The notes below the pieces were generated by a model that was not told the origin of the DNA, ran no database searches, and was given only the letters and a program-made list of their open reading frames with translations. Below are positions 3,270 through 44,214 of a stretch of 64,000 nt of DNA, piece by piece; positions within the stretch are counted from its first letter, which is position 1; each line of letters opens with the position of its first letter. Made by a program: the position numbers and the translations under genes. Origin of the DNA: Escherichia phage vB_EcoM_WFbE185; sequence record MK373778.1. One strand, 5' to 3'.

Positions 3270-3956
3270 TTAGAAGTCGTGGGTAGAATCGGCTTCCATC
3301 GCAATAACATAACTTACTTGAGAGCTTTCAAACTTAGCTGCAACTTTATCACCAGCTCCCCACAACATTACTTTATAGTTACCTGGCTGGATTTTCATAT
3401 TAGCCATATTGATTACGAAGTTAAAGTTGTTAGAACCATCATAATCAGTAAGAGTCAAAGAATACTTAGGACGAGTCAAGCCAGAATCTTCAACTTTATT
3501 ATAGCCATTGATAACAATTTTACCATCTTTATTTGTAATAGCAATTGTATCAATCTGAAGACCACGTGAAACTCGAAGCAATTGTTGAAGGTCTTCAGCT
3601 TTAATTTCAGTAATCACAGAAGCCACTGGGAATTGAATTGGCTTATTAGGAAAAACAATGGTGCTCTTGTCAGCGGCAGGCCAATAAACTGTGGAACGTG
3701 TATCTGCAATTTTAATATTGCCATCAGTGTGCATTGAAATTTCAGCATCATCAGATACTAGACTCAAAATGCTTAAGAAGCTATTCAAATCATAAAGTGC
3801 TACGTCAAAATCAATTTCATCAGAGATATTTGCTTCCGCATAAGTGGTGCCATTAACTGCACGAGTCATAATAAATTTACCTTGACTCAGCAGAATGCCA
3901 GAGTTAATAGAGGCAAAGTTTTTCAGAATAGCGATAGTATCTTTAGACAGTTTCAT
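3270..3956 (-). CDS. 45: Sliding clamp gp45
   Basis: ORF track 3270..3971; from MKLSKDTIAILKNFASINSG closely matches remembered T4 gp45. Confidence 0.95.
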   Translation of the reverse strand: MKLSKDTIAILKNFASINSGILLSQGKFIMTRAVNGTTYAEANISDEIDFDVALYDLNSFLSILSLVSDDAEISMHTDGNIKIADTRSTVYWPAADKSTIVFPNKPIQFPVASVITEIKAEDLQQLLRVSRGLQIDTIAITNKDGKIVINGYNKVEDSGLTRPKYSLTLTDYDGSNNFNFVINMANMKIQPGNYKVMLWGAGDKVAAKFESSQVSYVIAMEADSTHDF

Positions 3957-3998
3957 TTTATTTCCTTTCAAGACAATTCAAAGTTTATAACAAATTTA

Positions 3999-4415
3999 TT
4001 ATGCAGCAACCATCTGCTTTTTAATAGCTTCAGGCAGTGATTCAATATATTCTGGAATTTTAGAAGCAACAATTTCGCCAGCTGCAATTAGTTGTTCGTC
4101 GGCATCAACACAGTAAAAATCTTCAAGGCGTTCAGAACCGTCTTTATCAAGAACGATTTTAGCACCTGCTTCGATAGAATCTTTATAGTGCTTACGCATC
4201 AAATGAATCCACATATCAGACACATCGTTATCAATAAAACCATAAATCATAAAACGAGTTTCTTGTGGCAAAGATTGGAGTTTTTTAGCACTTGCGTCAT
4301 CACAATGCAGGACCCATGCTTTACGAACACGATTATGGTTATGCGGGTTAGCGTCAGTACGGATAGAAGTAACTTTCAGATCAGCAGCGGTAAAACCTTT
4401 AGCAGTAGTAAACAT
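3999..4415 (-). CDS. rpbA: RNA polymerase-binding protein RpbA (by position)
   Basis: 138 aa ORF directly downstream of gene 45, as in T4; sequence not independently recognised. Confidence 0.55.
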   Translation of the reverse strand: MFTTAKGFTAADLKVTSIRTDANPHNHNRVRKAWVLHCDDASAKKLQSLPQETRFMIYGFIDNDVSDMWIHLMRKHYKDSIEAGAKIVLDKDGSERLEDFYCVDADEQLIAAGEIVASKIPEYIESLPEAIKKQMVAA

Positions 4416-4427
4416 ATTATTTCTCTC

Positions 4428-4628
4428 TTATTCGTAGAAGTCGGTAACTGTCCATGCGGAATTGCGATTAGACATTATTTTATTATACTCATCTTTAAAA
4501 GCAGATTTGAGCATTTGTTCAGTGACAATATGTTCTTCACCTGAAAACGTATTGGTCAAAACATATTTTTTAATTTCAGGGACAACGAGAAGATGTTGTC
4601 CAGTTGAATACTCCATGTTGTTCTCCAT
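4428..4628 (-). CDS. Small conserved protein, 45.2-like
   Basis: 66 aa ORF between rpbA and 46; position only. Confidence 0.5.
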   Translation of the reverse strand: MENNMEYSTGQHLLVVPEIKKYVLTNTFSGEEHIVTEQMLKSAFKDEYNKIMSNRNSAWTVTDFYE

Positions 4629-13303: not shown

Positions 13304-15117
13304 TGGTGTTTAACCCTATGCATGATTTCTTTATTTTTACCGAGATTAAATCCGCGTTCGTTCGGATTTCCCAAATAACCGCATGTTCTTCTTATGGTGT
13401 TCATCTTTTTAGGATCAGTTTCTCCACAAATAGAACAAACAAATCCGTTTTCAGTAGGAGTCATTTCATGGGTACTTCCACATGTAAAACATTTATCCAC
13501 TGGCATATTAACACCAAAATAATCTAAATGTTGTGCAGCATAATCCCAGACGGCCTCAAGCCCCTTTAAATTGTTTTTCATATCTGGAAGTTCAACATAA
13601 GAAATGTGACCGCCGGTCGCTATGAAATGATAAGGAGCTTCACGAGAAATTTTTTCAAACGGAGTAATATTTTCTTCTACTGAAACATGGAAACTGTTAG
13701 TGTACCAGCCTTTATCTGTAACATCCTTTACACTTCCATATTTTTCTGTATCAAGTTTACAGAAGCGATAACAAAGGTTTTCAGCAGGAGTAGAATATAA
13801 ACTAAAAGCAAATCCAGTTCTTTCAGACCACTGTTTAAGATGAGCATTCATTTTAGTTAAAATTTCTTGCCCAATATCACGACCAACAAGAATATTCAAT
13901 TCGTGAATACCAATGTATCCTAAAGACACTGAACTTCTACCGTTTTTAAATAACTCAATTATGTCGTCATCAGGTTTAAGACGAACCCCGAATGCACCTT
14001 CTTGGTAAAGAATAGGAGCAACAGTCGCTTTAACTCCTTTTAAGGAACTAATTCTACACATCAAAGCTTCAAAACACAGGTCCATTCGTTCGTTAAATAG
14101 CTCAACAAATTTCTGTTCATTGAACTGTGTTCCAATATAAGAATCTAACGCAATACGAGGAAGATTCAGTGTTACAACACCAAGATTATTACGTCCATCA
14201 AGAATTTCATTGCCAGTCGAATCTTTCCATACACTCAAGAAACTACGGCAGCCCATTGGAGAAACAGGAACTGAAGAACCGGTAATAGCTTTATTATTCT
14301 TAACCGAAATAATGTCAGGATACATTCTTTTGCTTGCACATTCTAACGCAAGTTGTTTAATATCATAGTTCGGATCATCTTTATAAAGATTAACACCTTC
14401 TTCAACAAACATAACAAGTTTAGGAAAAATAGGAGTTATTCCATCACGACCAAGACCTTTAATGCGGTTTTTAAGAATTGCCTTCTGAATCATTCGTTCA
14501 GTCCAGTCAGTTCCCGTACCAAATGTAATTGTTACAAAAGGCGTTTGTCCGTTTGAACTAAAGAGAGTATTTACTTCATATTCATAAGCTTGGAACGCGT
14601 CATAGACATCTTTTTCTGTTTTGGATTGAGCATAATTCAACGCATCAGCAATTTGCCATTTTTCTGCATCTTCAACATGTTTAGCGTATGTGCGTTTAAC
14701 ATAAGGAGAAAGAACTTTATCGACATTCGCAAATGTAGTTCCGCCATACTGGTGTGAAGCAACTTGTGCGGTAATTTGTGCCATAATTGCAGTAGCAACG
14801 CCAATAGATTTAGGCGTTTCAATTTGAGCATTGCCTAATTTAAATCCATTCTCAAGCATCCCCTTTAAATCGACTAAACAGCAATTGGTAAACGGAAGAG
14901 CAGGAGAATAATCAATATCATGCATGTGAATGATTCCGCTTTCATGCGCATTCATAATAAAAGACGGGACCATATTTTTGGCAATGTGCTTAGACACAAT
15001 ACCAGCCATAAGGTCCCGTTGAGTTGGAAAAACACGAGAATCTTTATTAGCATTCTCGTTCAAAAGATCTTTATTAGTTTTATAAATTAATCCTTCAATT
15101 TCTTTTTCAATTTTCAT
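13300..15117 (-). CDS. nrdD: Anaerobic ribonucleoside-triphosphate reductase NrdD
   Basis: 605 aa continuous ORF; C-terminal glycyl-radical motif RRTCGYLG and Zn-ribbon CFTCG...CSICG. Confidence 0.95.
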   Translation of the reverse strand: MKIEKEIEGLIYKTNKDLLNENANKDSRVFPTQRDLMAGIVSKHIAKNMVPSFIMNAHESGIIHMHDIDYSPALPFTNCCLVDLKGMLENGFKLGNAQIETPKSIGVATAIMAQITAQVASHQYGGTTFANVDKVLSPYVKRTYAKHVEDAEKWQIADALNYAQSKTEKDVYDAFQAYEYEVNTLFSSNGQTPFVTITFGTGTDWTERMIQKAILKNRIKGLGRDGITPIFPKLVMFVEEGVNLYKDDPNYDIKQLALECASKRMYPDIISVKNNKAITGSSVPVSPMGCRSFLSVWKDSTGNEILDGRNNLGVVTLNLPRIALDSYIGTQFNEQKFVELFNERMDLCFEALMCRISSLKGVKATVAPILYQEGAFGVRLKPDDDIIELFKNGRSSVSLGYIGIHELNILVGRDIGQEILTKMNAHLKQWSERTGFAFSLYSTPAENLCYRFCKLDTEKYGSVKDVTDKGWYTNSFHVSVEENITPFEKISREAPYHFIATGGHISYVELPDMKNNLKGLEAVWDYAAQHLDYFGVNMPVDKCFTCGSTHEMTPTENGFVCSICGETDPKKMNTIRRTCGYLGNPNERGFNLGKNKEIMHRVKHQ

Positions 15118-15587
15118 TTTAAACTCTTTCTAAGCTGCTTTTTGAATGAAGCTATTAATTGTGTTTTAGTATCAGATTCATTATATTCAAATCCTCTTTG
15201 AAGCATCTCGGACATCATTTCCTCTTTACCTAGTCTTGAGAACTCTTTAGTTTTGTCTGGAACAAAATTAGGATGGATATTATTATCAGAATAATCTTGT
15301 TTCAAATAAGCAAGAAGAGATTCAAGCCATTCGAGGTAGTCGACATCACGACCTTTAAGACCAGAACGGTTGAACTTATGCTTCATTTGGCCTTCTGCTG
15401 CGTTGCACAGATTACAGAGTAACCCACGAACTCTACCTGCTTTTGGCCCGTTTAATTCGTGGTCGTGGTCAAGATGGTTACCTTGAACATCAGGGTCTAA
15501 TTCACGGTGGCAAATAGGACACTTACCGTTCTGTGCATCATAAAATTTTTGTTTTTCTTCTTTGTATAATTTGCCAGATAATAACAT
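15114..15587 (-). CDS. 49: Endonuclease VII gp49 (Holliday junction resolvase)
   Basis: 157 aa; matches remembered T4 endo VII (CPICHREL...HLDHDHELNGPKAGRVRGLLCNLCN). Confidence 0.9.
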   Translation of the reverse strand: MLLSGKLYKEEKQKFYDAQNGKCPICHRELDPDVQGNHLDHDHELNGPKAGRVRGLLCNLCNAAEGQMKHKFNRSGLKGRDVDYLEWLESLLAYLKQDYSDNNIHPNFVPDKTKEFSRLGKEEMMSEMLQRGFEYNESDTKTQLIASFKKQLRKSLK

Positions 15588-15616
15588 AATAAACCCTTAC
15601 CATATATAGATAAGGG

Positions 15617-15624
15617 TATTTATA
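15617..15624 (-). promoter_or_regulatory. Late promoter TATAAATA upstream of gene 49
   Basis: Plus tatttata, about 30 nt upstream of ATG 15587. Confidence 0.6.
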
Positions 15625-15626
15625 AT

Positions 15627-15806
15627 TTAGTAAACGTTATAAAAGTCTCGATGAAAACGTTTATACTGTCGAATCATTCTTTTAGTAGGACGTGTTACCG
15701 AAATGATTGAAGTCCTCATGTTCGGATTGTTTGGAGCCCCAATCATAATAAATTTCCAGGATTTTTGGCCGTTTGTTCTTTCGCCATAAAATAGTTCAGT
15801 TTTCAT
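15627..15806 (-). CDS. Small basic protein, 59 aa (paralogue of 16231..16401)
   Basis: Hand translation MKTELFYGERTNGQKSWKFIMIGAPNNPNMRTSIISVTRPTKRMIRQYKRFHRDFYNVY; below ORF-track cutoff. Confidence 0.4.
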   Translation of the reverse strand: MKTELFYGERTNGQKSWKFIMIGAPNNPNMRTSIISVTRPTKRMIRQYKRFHRDFYNVY

Positions 15807-15815
15807 AATAAACCT

Positions 15816-16229
15816 TTAACTTAAACGTCTTTCTAAATATTCAATGTATTCCGCTGCGGCTTGCATCAGATTACCTTCATAACCGTCATTATTTTCTTGG
15901 GCGGCTAATTTAGCTAAAGCATAAGAAATACGTTCACCTTCGAATTCGCCAAGTCCACCATCACAAACTACTTGGTCAATTTCTTCGAGTTCATCTATTG
16001 AATGGGATTCCCAGAAGCACCAAAGAGAAGTATCACGGTCATAGATGCAAAGTTTCTCACCTGTGTTCAACATCACTTCAATAATGCCATGGTCGCCATA
16101 ACCATCTTCGGTAGTAGTACCAATTACCTTGATGATCGTATCTTTCTTTAATTCAGGAAACTTGACTTGTAGTTCTTCATCTTCTTTAACAATCTTGAAC
16201 CATTTACCGCGAGTTTCAGAAATATTCAT
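15816..16229 (-). CDS. Hypothetical acidic protein, about 137 aa
   Basis: ORF track 15816..16367 trimmed to ATG 16229, which is stop/start coupled with the upstream small ORF. Confidence 0.5.
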   Translation of the reverse strand: MNISETRGKWFKIVKEDEELQVKFPELKKDTIIKVIGTTTEDGYGDHGIIEVMLNTGEKLCIYDRDTSLWCFWESHSIDELEEIDQVVCDGGLGEFEGERISYALAKLAAQENNDGYEGNLMQAAAEYIEYLERRLS

Positions 16230-16230
16230 A

Positions 16231-16401
16231 TCAATATTCTCTATAAAAGTTACGATGAGAACGTTTAGCTTTGCGAAGCTGACGTTTAGTAGGACGAACT
16301 GTAAATGGTTGTCCAGAGAAAAAATTCGGATCGGTTTTAATAAGCAAATACCAATCATGCTTGCCATTTTTTAATAAACGGTACAATAATTTAACTTGCA
16401 T
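16231..16401 (-). CDS. Small basic protein, about 56 aa (paralogue of 15627..15806)
   Basis: ORF track 16231..16428; shares C-terminal VRPTKRQLRKAKRSHRNFYREY motif. Confidence 0.4.
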   Translation of the reverse strand: MQVKLLYRLLKNGKHDWYLLIKTDPNFFSGQPFTVRPTKRQLRKAKRSHRNFYREY

Positions 16402-26452: not shown

Positions 26453-26480
26453 AAAAAAGCCCCGACCTTTCGGAAGGGGC
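26453..26480 (-). terminator. Rho-independent terminator, conserved GCCCC...GGGGC motif
   Basis: Minus reads GCCCCTTCCGAAAGGTCGGGGCTTTTTT; one of three near-identical copies. Confidence 0.6.
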
Positions 26481-26487
26481 TAGTAAA

Positions 26488-26791
26488 TTAGATAGATGTA
26501 GGCTCTAATTTTATTTTCATGAACTCGGCAAATTGTCTGGCAGTTTTTATGCCTTGTTCATGACATTCAAATGCATCATCACAGGGGCTATTTTTGTAAT
26601 GCTTTGCCATATACTTATAGAATTTTTCAGAATTCTCGACATTTTGAATTTCAAACAAAGTATATACGTTTTTAATACCTGATTCCATAAAGTTATCAAA
26701 ATATGGGTCAATATGTGCAGTACCAACGATAGGAGTTGTTGCTGCAAAAAAACCCCAGCATCGCTATGACAGCTATCGCTCTTAAGGCCAT
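26488..26791 (-). pseudogene. rI: Lysis-inhibition regulator rI, split by frameshift at a homopolymer
   Basis: ATG 26791 with AGGAGG SD gives MALRAIAVIAMLGFF then stops after 27 codons; the RI domain continues in the +1 frame after plus-strand A7 at 26746-26752. Confidence 0.6.
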
Positions 26792-26803
26792 ATAGGCCTC
26801 CTG

Positions 26804-27016
26804 TTAATTTTGGCCAGTATTTATTTTTCGCCTTTGGACGGCCTTAACATCTGCGAGGTATTTTTCCAGCTTGCGCTTGCGTGTATAATCAGCTTTAGAA
26901 CCAGTTTGACGAATATCCTCGTTTAAATGAGAAATAGAATGTCCTAATTCTCTTCGGATTTCGTCCAATTGGGTTACAGTAAGATTACGAAGTTGTCTTT
27001 CGTTTAATTGCTGCAT
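26804..27016 (-). CDS. Hypothetical basic protein (rI.1 position)
   Basis: ORF track 70 aa; late promoter TATAAATA 23 nt upstream. Confidence 0.5.
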
Positions 27017-27038: not shown

Positions 27039-27046
27039 TATTTATA
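27039..27046 (-). promoter_or_regulatory. Late promoter TATAAATA
   Basis: Plus tatttata immediately upstream of ORF 26804..27016. Confidence 0.55.
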
Positions 27047-27623
27047 ACAACCCTGTCAAATCGTTCCAATGCTTCCGGCATAATGACACATATCTATCGG
27101 TATCACCAATTTCAATTTGACTGCCATCTGTAATTGGAAGTCCGTCTTCCGTGACTCTAGCTACCATTGTGGCCTTTTTACCACAATGACAGACACCTTT
27201 AAGTTCAACAAGCTTATCGGCAATAGCCATTAATGCTTGAGAACCTTCAAATAGATTACCTTTAAAATCTGTTCGTAGTCCATATGCCATTACCGGCACA
27301 TTGTACACGTCAACAATACGACTAAGTTGATACACCTTTTCAGTAGTTAAGAACTGAGCTTCGTCAACAAATACACAGTGAATATCCTTTTGTGCTGCAG
27401 CCCATTTATAGAATTCAAAGATATCCATGTCTTTTGTAATTATATTGGCGTCCTTACGAATACCAATACGAGAGACTATTTCACCTTTTGAATCGCGAGT
27501 ATCAATAGCCGGTTTAAGAACTAATACACCCATGCCACGTTCTTTATAGTTATGTGCGGCAGTAAGTAATGAAGCAGACTTACCAGCGTTCATAGCAGCA
27601 TATGTAAAAATTAAACTAGCCAT
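27042..27623 (-). CDS. tk: Thymidine kinase
   Basis: 193 aa; P-loop AMNAGKS; Zn-ribbon CHCGKK...CRKH; resembles T4 Tk. Confidence 0.9.
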   Translation of the reverse strand: MASLIFTYAAMNAGKSASLLTAAHNYKERGMGVLVLKPAIDTRDSKGEIVSRIGIRKDANIITKDMDIFEFYKWAAAQKDIHCVFVDEAQFLTTEKVYQLSRIVDVYNVPVMAYGLRTDFKGNLFEGSQALMAIADKLVELKGVCHCGKKATMVARVTEDGLPITDGSQIEIGDTDRYVSLCRKHWNDLTGLL

Positions 27624-29885: not shown

Positions 29886-29889
29886 TACT

Positions 29890-30105
29890 TTATTGATAAA
29901 ATGGAGTTAAAGCCCAAGATTCTTTAGATACCATATTGGCGAAATGCCTCATCTCTTCGATTTGGCGACGACGCTGGTCAGCATAGTCTTCTTCGCCTTC
30001 TTCCTTACAATCTTCAAGGTCTTCTTCAAGATACTTTAAGTATTCACTACAAATTTTGTTGACCTTTTCTTGAAAGTCCAATAACCCAGTAATAGTAGAA
30101 GCCAT
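29890..30105 (-). CDS. Hypothetical acidic protein, 71 aa
   Basis: ORF track. Confidence 0.45.
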   Translation of the reverse strand: MASTITGLLDFQEKVNKICSEYLKYLEEDLEDCKEEGEEDYADQRRRQIEEMRHFANMVSKESWALTPFYQ

Positions 30106-38205: not shown

Positions 38206-38490
38206 TCATTTGAGAAGCGTAAACCCTTTTATTTTCTTGTTATGGTTTATAAAATCGTAGTAAAAATAGACTACAGTACAAAATGATGCGATTGATGCAA
38301 AGGCTTGAGTATATCGTAAGTCCTGCCACTGGTCTGTGAATCCACCAGTGTTCCCTATAAATCCTAACACAACGCCGTCAATAAGAAATCCAACTAATCC
38401 AAAGGCAAATCCCATGCCAATACTCATAATAAAAATTAGAATGTTCTCACCAAGAGAAGGCCATACGGTTAAGAGTTGAGGCTTTTGCAT
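38206..38490 (-). CDS. Membrane protein, 94 aa
   Basis: ORF track; hydrophobic. Confidence 0.5.
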   Translation of the reverse strand: MQKPQLLTVWPSLGENILIFIMSIGMGFAFGLVGFLIDGVVLGFIGNTGGFTDQWQDLRYTQAFASIASFCTVVYFYYDFINHNKKIKGFTLLK

Positions 38491-43881: not shown

Positions 43882-43918
43882 TTTATTTCTCCGTTTACTC
43901 ATTTGTTTTGATAGGACT

Positions 43919-43948
43919 ACTATAACATAGTCCTATCATCATGTAAAC
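43919..43948 (-). promoter_or_regulatory. Sigma70-type early promoter inside perfect palindrome
   Basis: GTTTAC-18-TATAGT; arms GATAGGACTA / TAGTCCTATC at 43910-43937. Confidence 0.55.
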
Positions 43949-43950
43949 TA

Positions 43951-44214
43951 TTAAATTCCAGCTTCGCGTTTAACATAATCAACATAAGCTTCGATAGCTT
44001 TCTTGCTGGTAATTTTTACCTGGCCACGTCCATTGCCTTCTTTAGAGTTTTTCTTAACAACTACATTACCATCTTTAACACCCCATACATGGACATAAGT
44101 ACCGATGTTTCGGTCGTAGAACATTGCATGGTCGTTGTTGTAAGAGAATGATTCGTAGTTCTCCGACAGAGTAGAAGATTGAGATTCAGCGATAAATTCT
44201 TTATACGTTTTCAT
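43951..44214 (-). CDS. Internal protein with capsid-targeting sequence, 87 aa
   Basis: N-terminus MKTYKEFIAES. Confidence 0.6.
   Translation of the reverse strand: MKTYKEFIAESQSSTLSENYESFSYNNDHAMFYDRNIGTYVHVWGVKDGNVVVKKNSKEGNGRGQVKITSKKAIEAYVDYVKREAGI

Follow-up and report, generated by a model that had tools for sequence, protein, structure and literature searches.

The locus at positions 26,488 to 26,791 of the window (by which we mean the whole stretch of 64,000 nucleotides of MK373778 that was analysed) raises the question of whether the rI lysis-inhibition gene of phage vB_EcoM_WFbE185 is truly split by one additional base in a homopolymer, or whether an intact gene was misread by one base when this genome was sequenced. 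WFbE185, to which exact look-ups of four proteins of the window all lead, is a Mosigvirus from Wolfenbüttel sewage (2016) with a genome of 170,429 bp, and its closest matches among the phage genomes that were searched by BLAST are about 97% identical. In the annotation of MK373778, the rI gene is missing and a fragment of it is labelled hypothetical.

The interrupted rI gene and its neighbourhood

The first-pass annotation had described an rI gene broken by a +1 frameshift, and its coordinates and translations all hold: we found the AGGAGG Shine-Dalgarno sequence, the ATG at 26791, the stop after 27 codons, the continuation in the +1 frame and the plus-strand A7 run at 26746-26752 where it had placed them. 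The parts of the gene were assigned from an alignment with the intact rI genes of phages p000y, JK42, Shf125875 and RB69, and the features of the region are the following.

26488..26791, minus strand: rI (RI antiholin) gene, interrupted; 304 nt versus 303 nt in relatives
26802-26797, minus strand: Shine-Dalgarno sequence AGGAGG, 5 nt 5' of the rI ATG and invariant in the alignment of the relatives
26791-26789, minus strand: rI start codon, ATG
26708..26791, minus strand: zero-frame ORF of 27 aa, made of 15 RI SAR residues and 12 out-of-frame residues, then a stop
26746..26752, minus strand: T7 homopolymer (plus-strand A7) in codons 14-15 (Phe14-Phe15), confirmed by regular expression
26488..26745, minus strand: remaining part of RI in the +1 frame (AATTPIVGTAHIDPYFDNFMESGIK...EPTSI, then TAA), with the end of the SAR and the entire periplasmic domain, including both conserved Cys
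26488..26688, minus strand: 66-aa ORF from the internal Met35, the sole piece of rI annotated in GenBank (QBQ77611.1, 'hypothetical protein')
26453..26480 (about), minus strand: intrinsic terminator 3' of rI, a GCCCC...GGGGC hairpin followed by T6
26785..26799, minus strand: hairpin AGGCC-UAUAU-GGCCU, which spans the Shine-Dalgarno sequence and the AUG of rI
26804..27016, minus strand: rI.1, the upstream neighbour, intact (70 aa) and 100% identical to the Shf125875 protein
27042..27623, minus strand: thymidine kinase gene tk, intact, which serves as the synteny anchor

Direct translation from the rI ATG gives MALRAIAVIAMLGFFCSNNSYRWYCTY, with a stop after 27 codons; in this zero frame, starting at 26791, MALRAIAVIAMLGFF is followed by CSNNSYRWYCTY and then by the stop at 26708. 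Directly 3' of the T7 run, the +1 frame reads AATTPIVGTAHIDPYFDNFMESGIKNVY... and stays open until the TAA at 26490-26488, so that the sequence AATTPIVGTAHIDPYFDNFMESGIKNVYTLFE...KIKLEPTSI precedes that stop codon. The break in rI is a direct reading of the sequence and not a statistical pattern. Since the wild-type relatives carry T6 where the window has its T7 tract at 26746-26752, this tract is the site of the +1 insertion. Removing one T creates a 303-nt ORF of 100 aa, and the claim that a one-base deletion restores an RI-like protein of about 100 aa is thus borne out. As written, rI is, to judge by its reading frame, which does not run uninterrupted from start to stop, a pseudogene or null allele of the antiholin family.

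The identity of the gene was assessed on the repaired 100-aa product. This product matched the Pfam family PF24205 (Antiholin, with the title 'T4-like virus antiholin family') over residues 1-98 with an E-value of 2.9e-24 and 85.2 bits, for a cut-off of 27, and its residues 26-96 matched the periplasmic domain of T4 RI (PDB 6psk/6psh) with an E-value of about 4e-23. When counted in the alignment, 39 of 71 residues were identical to those of the T4 RI periplasmic domain, and both Cys residues were aligned. Residues 1-25 are rich in Ala, Gly and Thr and weakly hydrophobic (mean Kyte-Doolittle value of about 1.8), which fits what is expected of the signal-anchor (SAR) of RI; in the window as it is, the first 15 of these residues alone are in frame. 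The gene order, tk - rI.1 - rI - mobD.2a (DUF7438), matches that of RB69, Shf125875, JK42 and p000y. By profile, structural domain, SAR and position, the repaired product is thus identified as a T4-like RI antiholin, as had been proposed from the letters alone.

In RB69 (AY303349, locus positions 1171-1443) and Shf125875 (locus positions 27154-27426), rI is annotated from an internal ATG (Met11), giving a product of 90 aa; since most other records and the Shine-Dalgarno sequence favour the upstream ATG (100 aa), the Met11 start is an annotation inconsistency. The hairpin over the Shine-Dalgarno sequence and start codon is kept in the relatives, with one stem base fewer in Shf125875, and it could be a possible brake on translation initiation. 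At the other end of the gene, rI has its own terminator, and polar effects on downstream genes are therefore not expected.

One might suppose that the 27-aa peptide, the 66-aa ORF or both have a function independently of each other, considering that the 66-aa ORF was called as a gene in GenBank (as 'hypothetical protein WFbE185_00106') and in one other assembly. This call, however, was made only because the full-length frame is broken. The sequence upstream of the internal ATG at 26688 contains no Shine-Dalgarno sequence, and ATG, GTG and TTG are all absent from the +1 frame upstream of Met35. The 66-aa fragment also lacks an export signal, since it does not include the signal-anchor that is needed to reach the periplasm, where RI acts, and the 27-aa peptide retains just 15 native residues. 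We consider it extremely improbable that rI is a functional split gene.

Run length in relatives and origin of the T7 alleles

The locus has matches of 90-98% identity in about 154 Mosigvirus records. A first probe of 76 nt, centred on the run, matched 110 records, none of them identically; among the 60 matches listed, 58 had a span one base below that of the matched part of the probe, corresponding to T6. A second probe of 76 nt, which represents the other main haplotype, matched 24 records, all of which had T6, so that the T6 length was found in all but 2 of the 84 matches listed for both probes. With the exception of TH58, none of the 110 and 24 matched records gave a gapless match to a T7 probe. 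A regular-expression search of retrieved loci found T6 in 11 loci; the T6 loci include those of RB69, Shf125875, NHEP29, mogra, G2469, p000y and JK42, and also two IMG/VR contigs and three metagenome or ENA contigs. Altogether, the run length was read in the 84 listed matches and in 15 retrieved loci, out of roughly 155 records. Aligning the locus with the rI genes of related T4-like phages, as the first-pass annotation had suggested, thus showed T6, with the gene intact, in every public Mosigvirus record that can be read at the run, apart from TH58 (T7) and ECCR664 (T5). Four sibling phages from the same study and pipeline as WFbE185 (G53, KAW3E185, MM02 and G2469) have T6.

TH58 (MT446423) was sequenced on Illumina MiSeq (2x250) with Q30-filtered reads and a coverage of 55.7x, after three plaque purifications (PMC7498436). 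With MiSeq data, the consensus of TH58 is unlikely to have gained a base in a T6 run by over-calling. The record itself is flagged UNVERIFIED and is unannotated. It contains a second T6-to-T7 insertion, which splits nrdC.8 (at about 22113 of the reverse complement), and an insert of about 1 kb that interrupts nrdD (14604-15644 of the reverse complement) and that may be an intron or a homing-endonuclease element.

ECCR664 (OL631257) is a different case. Five one-base short calls in A/T runs are found within 3 kb of this record, the rI run included, and its tk, rI and several other genes are unannotated. It has the appearance of a long-read or flow-chemistry assembly that was left uncorrected and is unfit for homopolymer comparison, and we rejected its T5 as a biological variant, given five short homopolymer calls in 3 kb.

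Beyond these records, an exact look-up of the 66-aa product led to a Logan contig from run ERR14207008, in which rI has T7 and seven neighbouring genes are intact; a Logan contig from SRR23493913 ends inside rI and is uninformative on the run. Scans of IMG/VR and the JGI metagenomes with an exact T7 pattern gave no match; the T6 pattern itself gave merely 2 and 3 matches, too few to speak for uncultured populations. In JK42 (MK962756, at about position 1851 of the locus), rI is frameshifted at another site, by an additional T in GGCA-T-TAAAAAC near the 3' end; the last ~20 residues are replaced, and the annotation gives the product as a 103-aa 'rI lysis inhibition regulator'. This is a second case of a disrupted rI in a deposited Mosigvirus genome.

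In the alignment, the three T7 alleles are found on three flanking haplotypes, each of which has a T6 twin.

WFbE185: flank ...GCTGTCATAGCG...; T6 twin p000y, which differs only at a synonymous site (ATT/ATC) 34 nt downstream
TH58: G for A 13 nt upstream of the run; T6 twins are two IMG/VR contigs, across 38 nt upstream and 18 nt downstream
ERR14207008: flank ...GCCATTGTGGCG...ACGACT...; T6 twin Shf125875, which differs only by 1 nt in the spacer upstream of the ATG; RB69 is nearly identical

Since T7 occurs on three haplotypes with T6 twins, the insertion is recurrent. The distinguishing sites closest to the run are 9-13 nt away, so that inheritance of T7 from a common ancestor would call for a conversion tract of less than about 25 nt. 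Judged by these flanks, it is far more parsimonious that T7 arose by independent +1 insertions, in at least three Mosigvirus isolates.

Sequencing error, recoding or slippage mutation

PacBio consensus errors cluster at homopolymers, and the rI break could be one of them, in which case the true phage would have T6 and an intact rI and its consensus would have over-called the run by one base. The source study used PacBio RSII with HGAP or MiSeq with SPAdes, the choice not being stated phage by phage for WFbE185 (PMC6563267), and the platform for this phage may thus have been PacBio RSII with HGAP; the coverage of 190x (189.9x in the source-paper supplement), however, argues against an over-call, as do the four T6 siblings that came through the same pipeline. 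That miscalls are possible at this very run can be seen from ECCR664, with its T5 and four other short calls in 3 kb, but the same +1 at the same run is found in an Illumina MiSeq assembly (TH58) and in the independent Logan contig. Similarly, a handful of residual errors is expected in each 170-kb genome, which is comparable in magnitude with the ~1% of records that have T7, but three chance errors at one of about 60 runs are not expected.

The rest of the window bears on the same question. About 110 of its genes are collinear, full length and in one frame when compared with the Shf125875 proteins (all annotated proteins over 64 kb), and e.3 alone is frame-broken besides rI, relative to the Shf125875 annotation. 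The window contains 62 runs of at least six bases, four of them runs of seven, and none of eight or more, which makes the rI run an unusual one. A frame-breaking change in length is absent from the other 61 runs, which also speaks against an artefact at the rI run, and the other three runs of seven lie in intact genes whose products are 98.7-100% identical to reference proteins. Singleton indels of 1-2 nt were counted in six genomes over 48 kb: the window has 4, two of them cancelling each other out, while four assemblies used for comparison have 0-5 and TH58 has 13.

The e.3 gene (38206-38490, minus strand), which encodes a predicted membrane protein of 119 aa in relatives, is frame-shifted by a change at about 38227-38240, where A5-T-A5-GG in 103 relatives becomes A4-T-A4-GGG; the product is shortened to 94 aa (WFbE185_00136) and the ATGA overlap with the next gene is lost. 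The change was absent from all other records compared (n=103), and a second frame-breaking change that is unique to the window could count in favour of an artefact in rI too. It consists, however, of several adjacent differences, which do not look like a simple miscall, and the length of e.3 varies elsewhere (80-98 versus 119 aa): shortened products are also found in TU01, pEK20/pJBK and an E. coli-labelled contig. Considering this, and the normal indel count of the window, we set e.3 aside as a sign of an error-prone assembly. The data set is nonetheless not error-free, since the sibling assembly G2469 (MK327934) has a broken essential gene: at 3711-4452, the annotation gives the sliding-clamp gene 45 as two CDSs that overlap, and its tblastn pieces overlap by 22 residues in a locus that is about 55 nt too long, which suggests a short duplication or an assembly artefact. 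All in all, we judge a consensus error at the rI run to be rather unlikely.

Elsewhere in the window, a segment of about 550 bp (15692-16242) that Shf125875 lacks occurs in NHEP29, mogra, G2469 and TH58 with 89-93% identity; in these genomes, the annotation names it PinA, the Lon protease inhibitor. Further mosaic replacements, again with Shf125875 as the reference, are located at about 29889-30100 (vs.3) and at about 43892-44185 (internal head protein).

A third possibility is that RI is still made from the T7 allele, through a +1 ribosomal slip or through slippage of the RNA polymerase back to U6, in which case the gene would be down-tuned and not dead. Programmed frameshifting had been called unlikely in the first-pass annotation, and the uninterrupted T6 gene of the relatives agrees with this; the reason that was given, that a seven-U run is typically a -1 and not a +1 site, is the weaker one, since U7 would allow a perfect re-pairing of tRNA-Phe in +1. 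Indeed, GGG UUU UUU UGC would permit this re-pairing in the P site and would regenerate ...GFFAATT..., and a GGGG stretch is located 3 nt upstream of the shift codon, at a spacing that resembles that of the Shine-Dalgarno-like stimulator of prfB. The A-site codon, however, is UGC, an ordinary sense codon and not a stop, and nothing sets the local RNA fold apart (z = -2.2), which has no specific downstream structure. Low-level slippage is generally known to occur on runs of seven, but such a run is shorter than what efficient transcriptional slippage takes, and read-through, if there is any, would probably be of ~1% or less. Moreover, the two-frame layout is not conserved: all readable relatives except TH58 and ECCR664 have T6 and a single ORF, and T7 is therefore derived and not an evolved signal. 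Recoding of this kind is in our view very improbable, and a trace of leaky RI expression from T7 is possible.

The two explanations that had been put forward at first, a sequencing error and a genuine null allele, are thus both still live, and the three haplotypes, the MiSeq assembly of TH58, the T6 siblings and the lack of any other broken run in the window shift the balance towards the genuine allele. Judging from the assembled sequences, we think it likely that T7 is a real slippage mutation and that the WFbE185 stock is rI-null, the mutation having been either fixed by plaque purification or selected during propagation.

Expected phenotype and comparison with known systems

In T4, the periplasmic domain of RI binds and blocks the T holin; when RI is missing, the T holin is unrestrained, lysis takes place earlier and superinfection does not delay it. 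We propose that the T6 run of the Mosigvirus rI gene, which encodes Phe14-Phe15 in the signal-anchor, may be a hot spot of replication slippage, and that the WFbE185 stock would carry its +1 (T7) allele. Essentially no RI would then be made, the holin would fire without restraint by the antiholin, and one would expect a shorter latent period, rapid lysis and larger and clearer plaques.

WFbE185 was purified through at least four single-plaque passages, its lysate was harvested at 5 h at the latest, and the harvest in the source study consisted of the centrifugation and filtration of cleared or 5-hour lysates (PMC6563267). T7 could have become the consensus if a mutant plaque was picked during the repeated single-plaque purification; alternatively, centrifuged and filtered lysates, taken when cleared or after 5 hours, would favour early lysers, and T7 would have been selected at harvest. 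Repeated plaque bottlenecks and the loss of phage inside lysis-delayed cells would both favour an early-lysing mutant. Since slippage would be symmetrical, a high rate of reversion from T7 to T6 is also to be expected.

Spontaneous r mutants have a frequency of 1e-3 to 1e-4 and form larger and clearer plaques (PMC6832632). For RB69, the same review describes that all six sequenced short-latent-period mutants obtained by serial transfer (6/6) had rI mutations, five of which were different, and that rI loss-of-function alleles of RB69 arise readily and are favoured by early-lysis regimes at high host density (PMC6832632). It also reports that RB69 is without lysis inhibition and its rI mutants have a shortened latent period, RI apparently lengthening the basic latency (PMC6832632). 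Since RB69, the type Mosigvirus, has an intact rI with T6 and is nevertheless reported without lysis inhibition, the phenotype of WFbE185 may, by analogy, be a shorter latency with larger plaques and not a loss of classical lysis inhibition. An rI-null stock of a T4-like phage would be expected to lyse faster and to give larger plaques and smaller bursts at high density, which is of relevance to biocontrol and to comparative phenotyping.

The recurrence of T7 raises the question of whether the tract itself has a function. In T2, T4 and T6, homopolymers of at least 6 nt carry frameshift variants at a mean of ~3e-4 in lysates, rIIA with an engineered +A in its A6 run reverts some 1e4-fold faster than a point mutant, and such tracts have been named phage contingency loci (Gomez, Barrick and Waters 2025 preprint, 10.1101/2025.10.21.683753). 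The rI tract resembles these in being a homopolymer of at least 6 bp inside an ORF (T6 in relatives, T7 here) and in having changed its length independently, with T7 on three haplotypes and the T5 of ECCR664 discounted. It might then be a working contingency locus, where frequent and reversible T6/T7 switching would keep both RI-on (long-latency) and RI-off (rapid-lysis) phages in every population as a bet-hedge of lysis timing against fluctuating host density and where the T7 isolates would represent the off state and not accidents of the laboratory. The sequence, however, does not seem to indicate that the tract is maintained for its mutability: an AT-rich phage would be expected to encode Phe-Phe as TTT TTT, and long runs are strongly depleted in the genome, a first-order Markov model predicting about 138 runs of at least six (62 observed), about 48 of at least seven (4 observed) and about 16 of at least eight (0 observed) for the window. 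On the plus strand, the 62 runs are split into 46 of T and 16 of A. We regard a contingency function of the rI tract as doubtful; the tract is nonetheless a convenient test case for the idea that phage homopolymers act as contingency loci.

Returning to the reading that we prefer, a slippage mutation in rI, the finding adds a new null allele to a gene that is already well known, and the mechanism is a textbook one. It refines, and does not change, current understanding; the added point is that the same tract was hit independently in at least three isolates.

The loss of RI is the classical cause of the rapid-lysis (r) plaque type, and the closest known parallels are the rI mutants of T4, such as r48, in the RI-T holin system. 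The WFbE185 gene resembles that of T4 in its family (PF24205), in 39/71 identical residues, in both Cys and in its position beside tk; unlike these mutants, it belongs to a Mosigvirus, and its lesion is specifically a +1 in a T6 run. The rI mutants that were obtained by serial transfer of RB69 (Abedon, Hyman and Thomas 2003, as related in PMC6832632) are similar in genus and gene, but, according to what is related there, they come from a designed evolution experiment, whereas T7 was found here in an isolate deposited as 'wild-type'. With respect to genes that depend on prfB-type +1 frameshifting or on transcriptional slippage, rI has in common a slippery run with perfect re-pairing and a G-rich stretch 3 nt upstream, while its run is short and not conserved and is followed by neither an A-site stop nor a rare codon. 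In mechanism, the nearest relatives are the A6 runs of the T4 rII genes, the classical frameshift hot spots of Benzer and Streisinger: in both cases, a homopolymer of at least six bases in an r gene gains one base, the gain recurs and high reversion is expected. The gene concerned here is rI and not rIIA, and the rI tract is known from assemblies whereas the rates come from rIIA; with this difference in mind, the T6 tract of Mosigvirus rI would be a natural hot spot of frameshifts, like the A6 runs of rII, in a gene that controls the timing of lysis.
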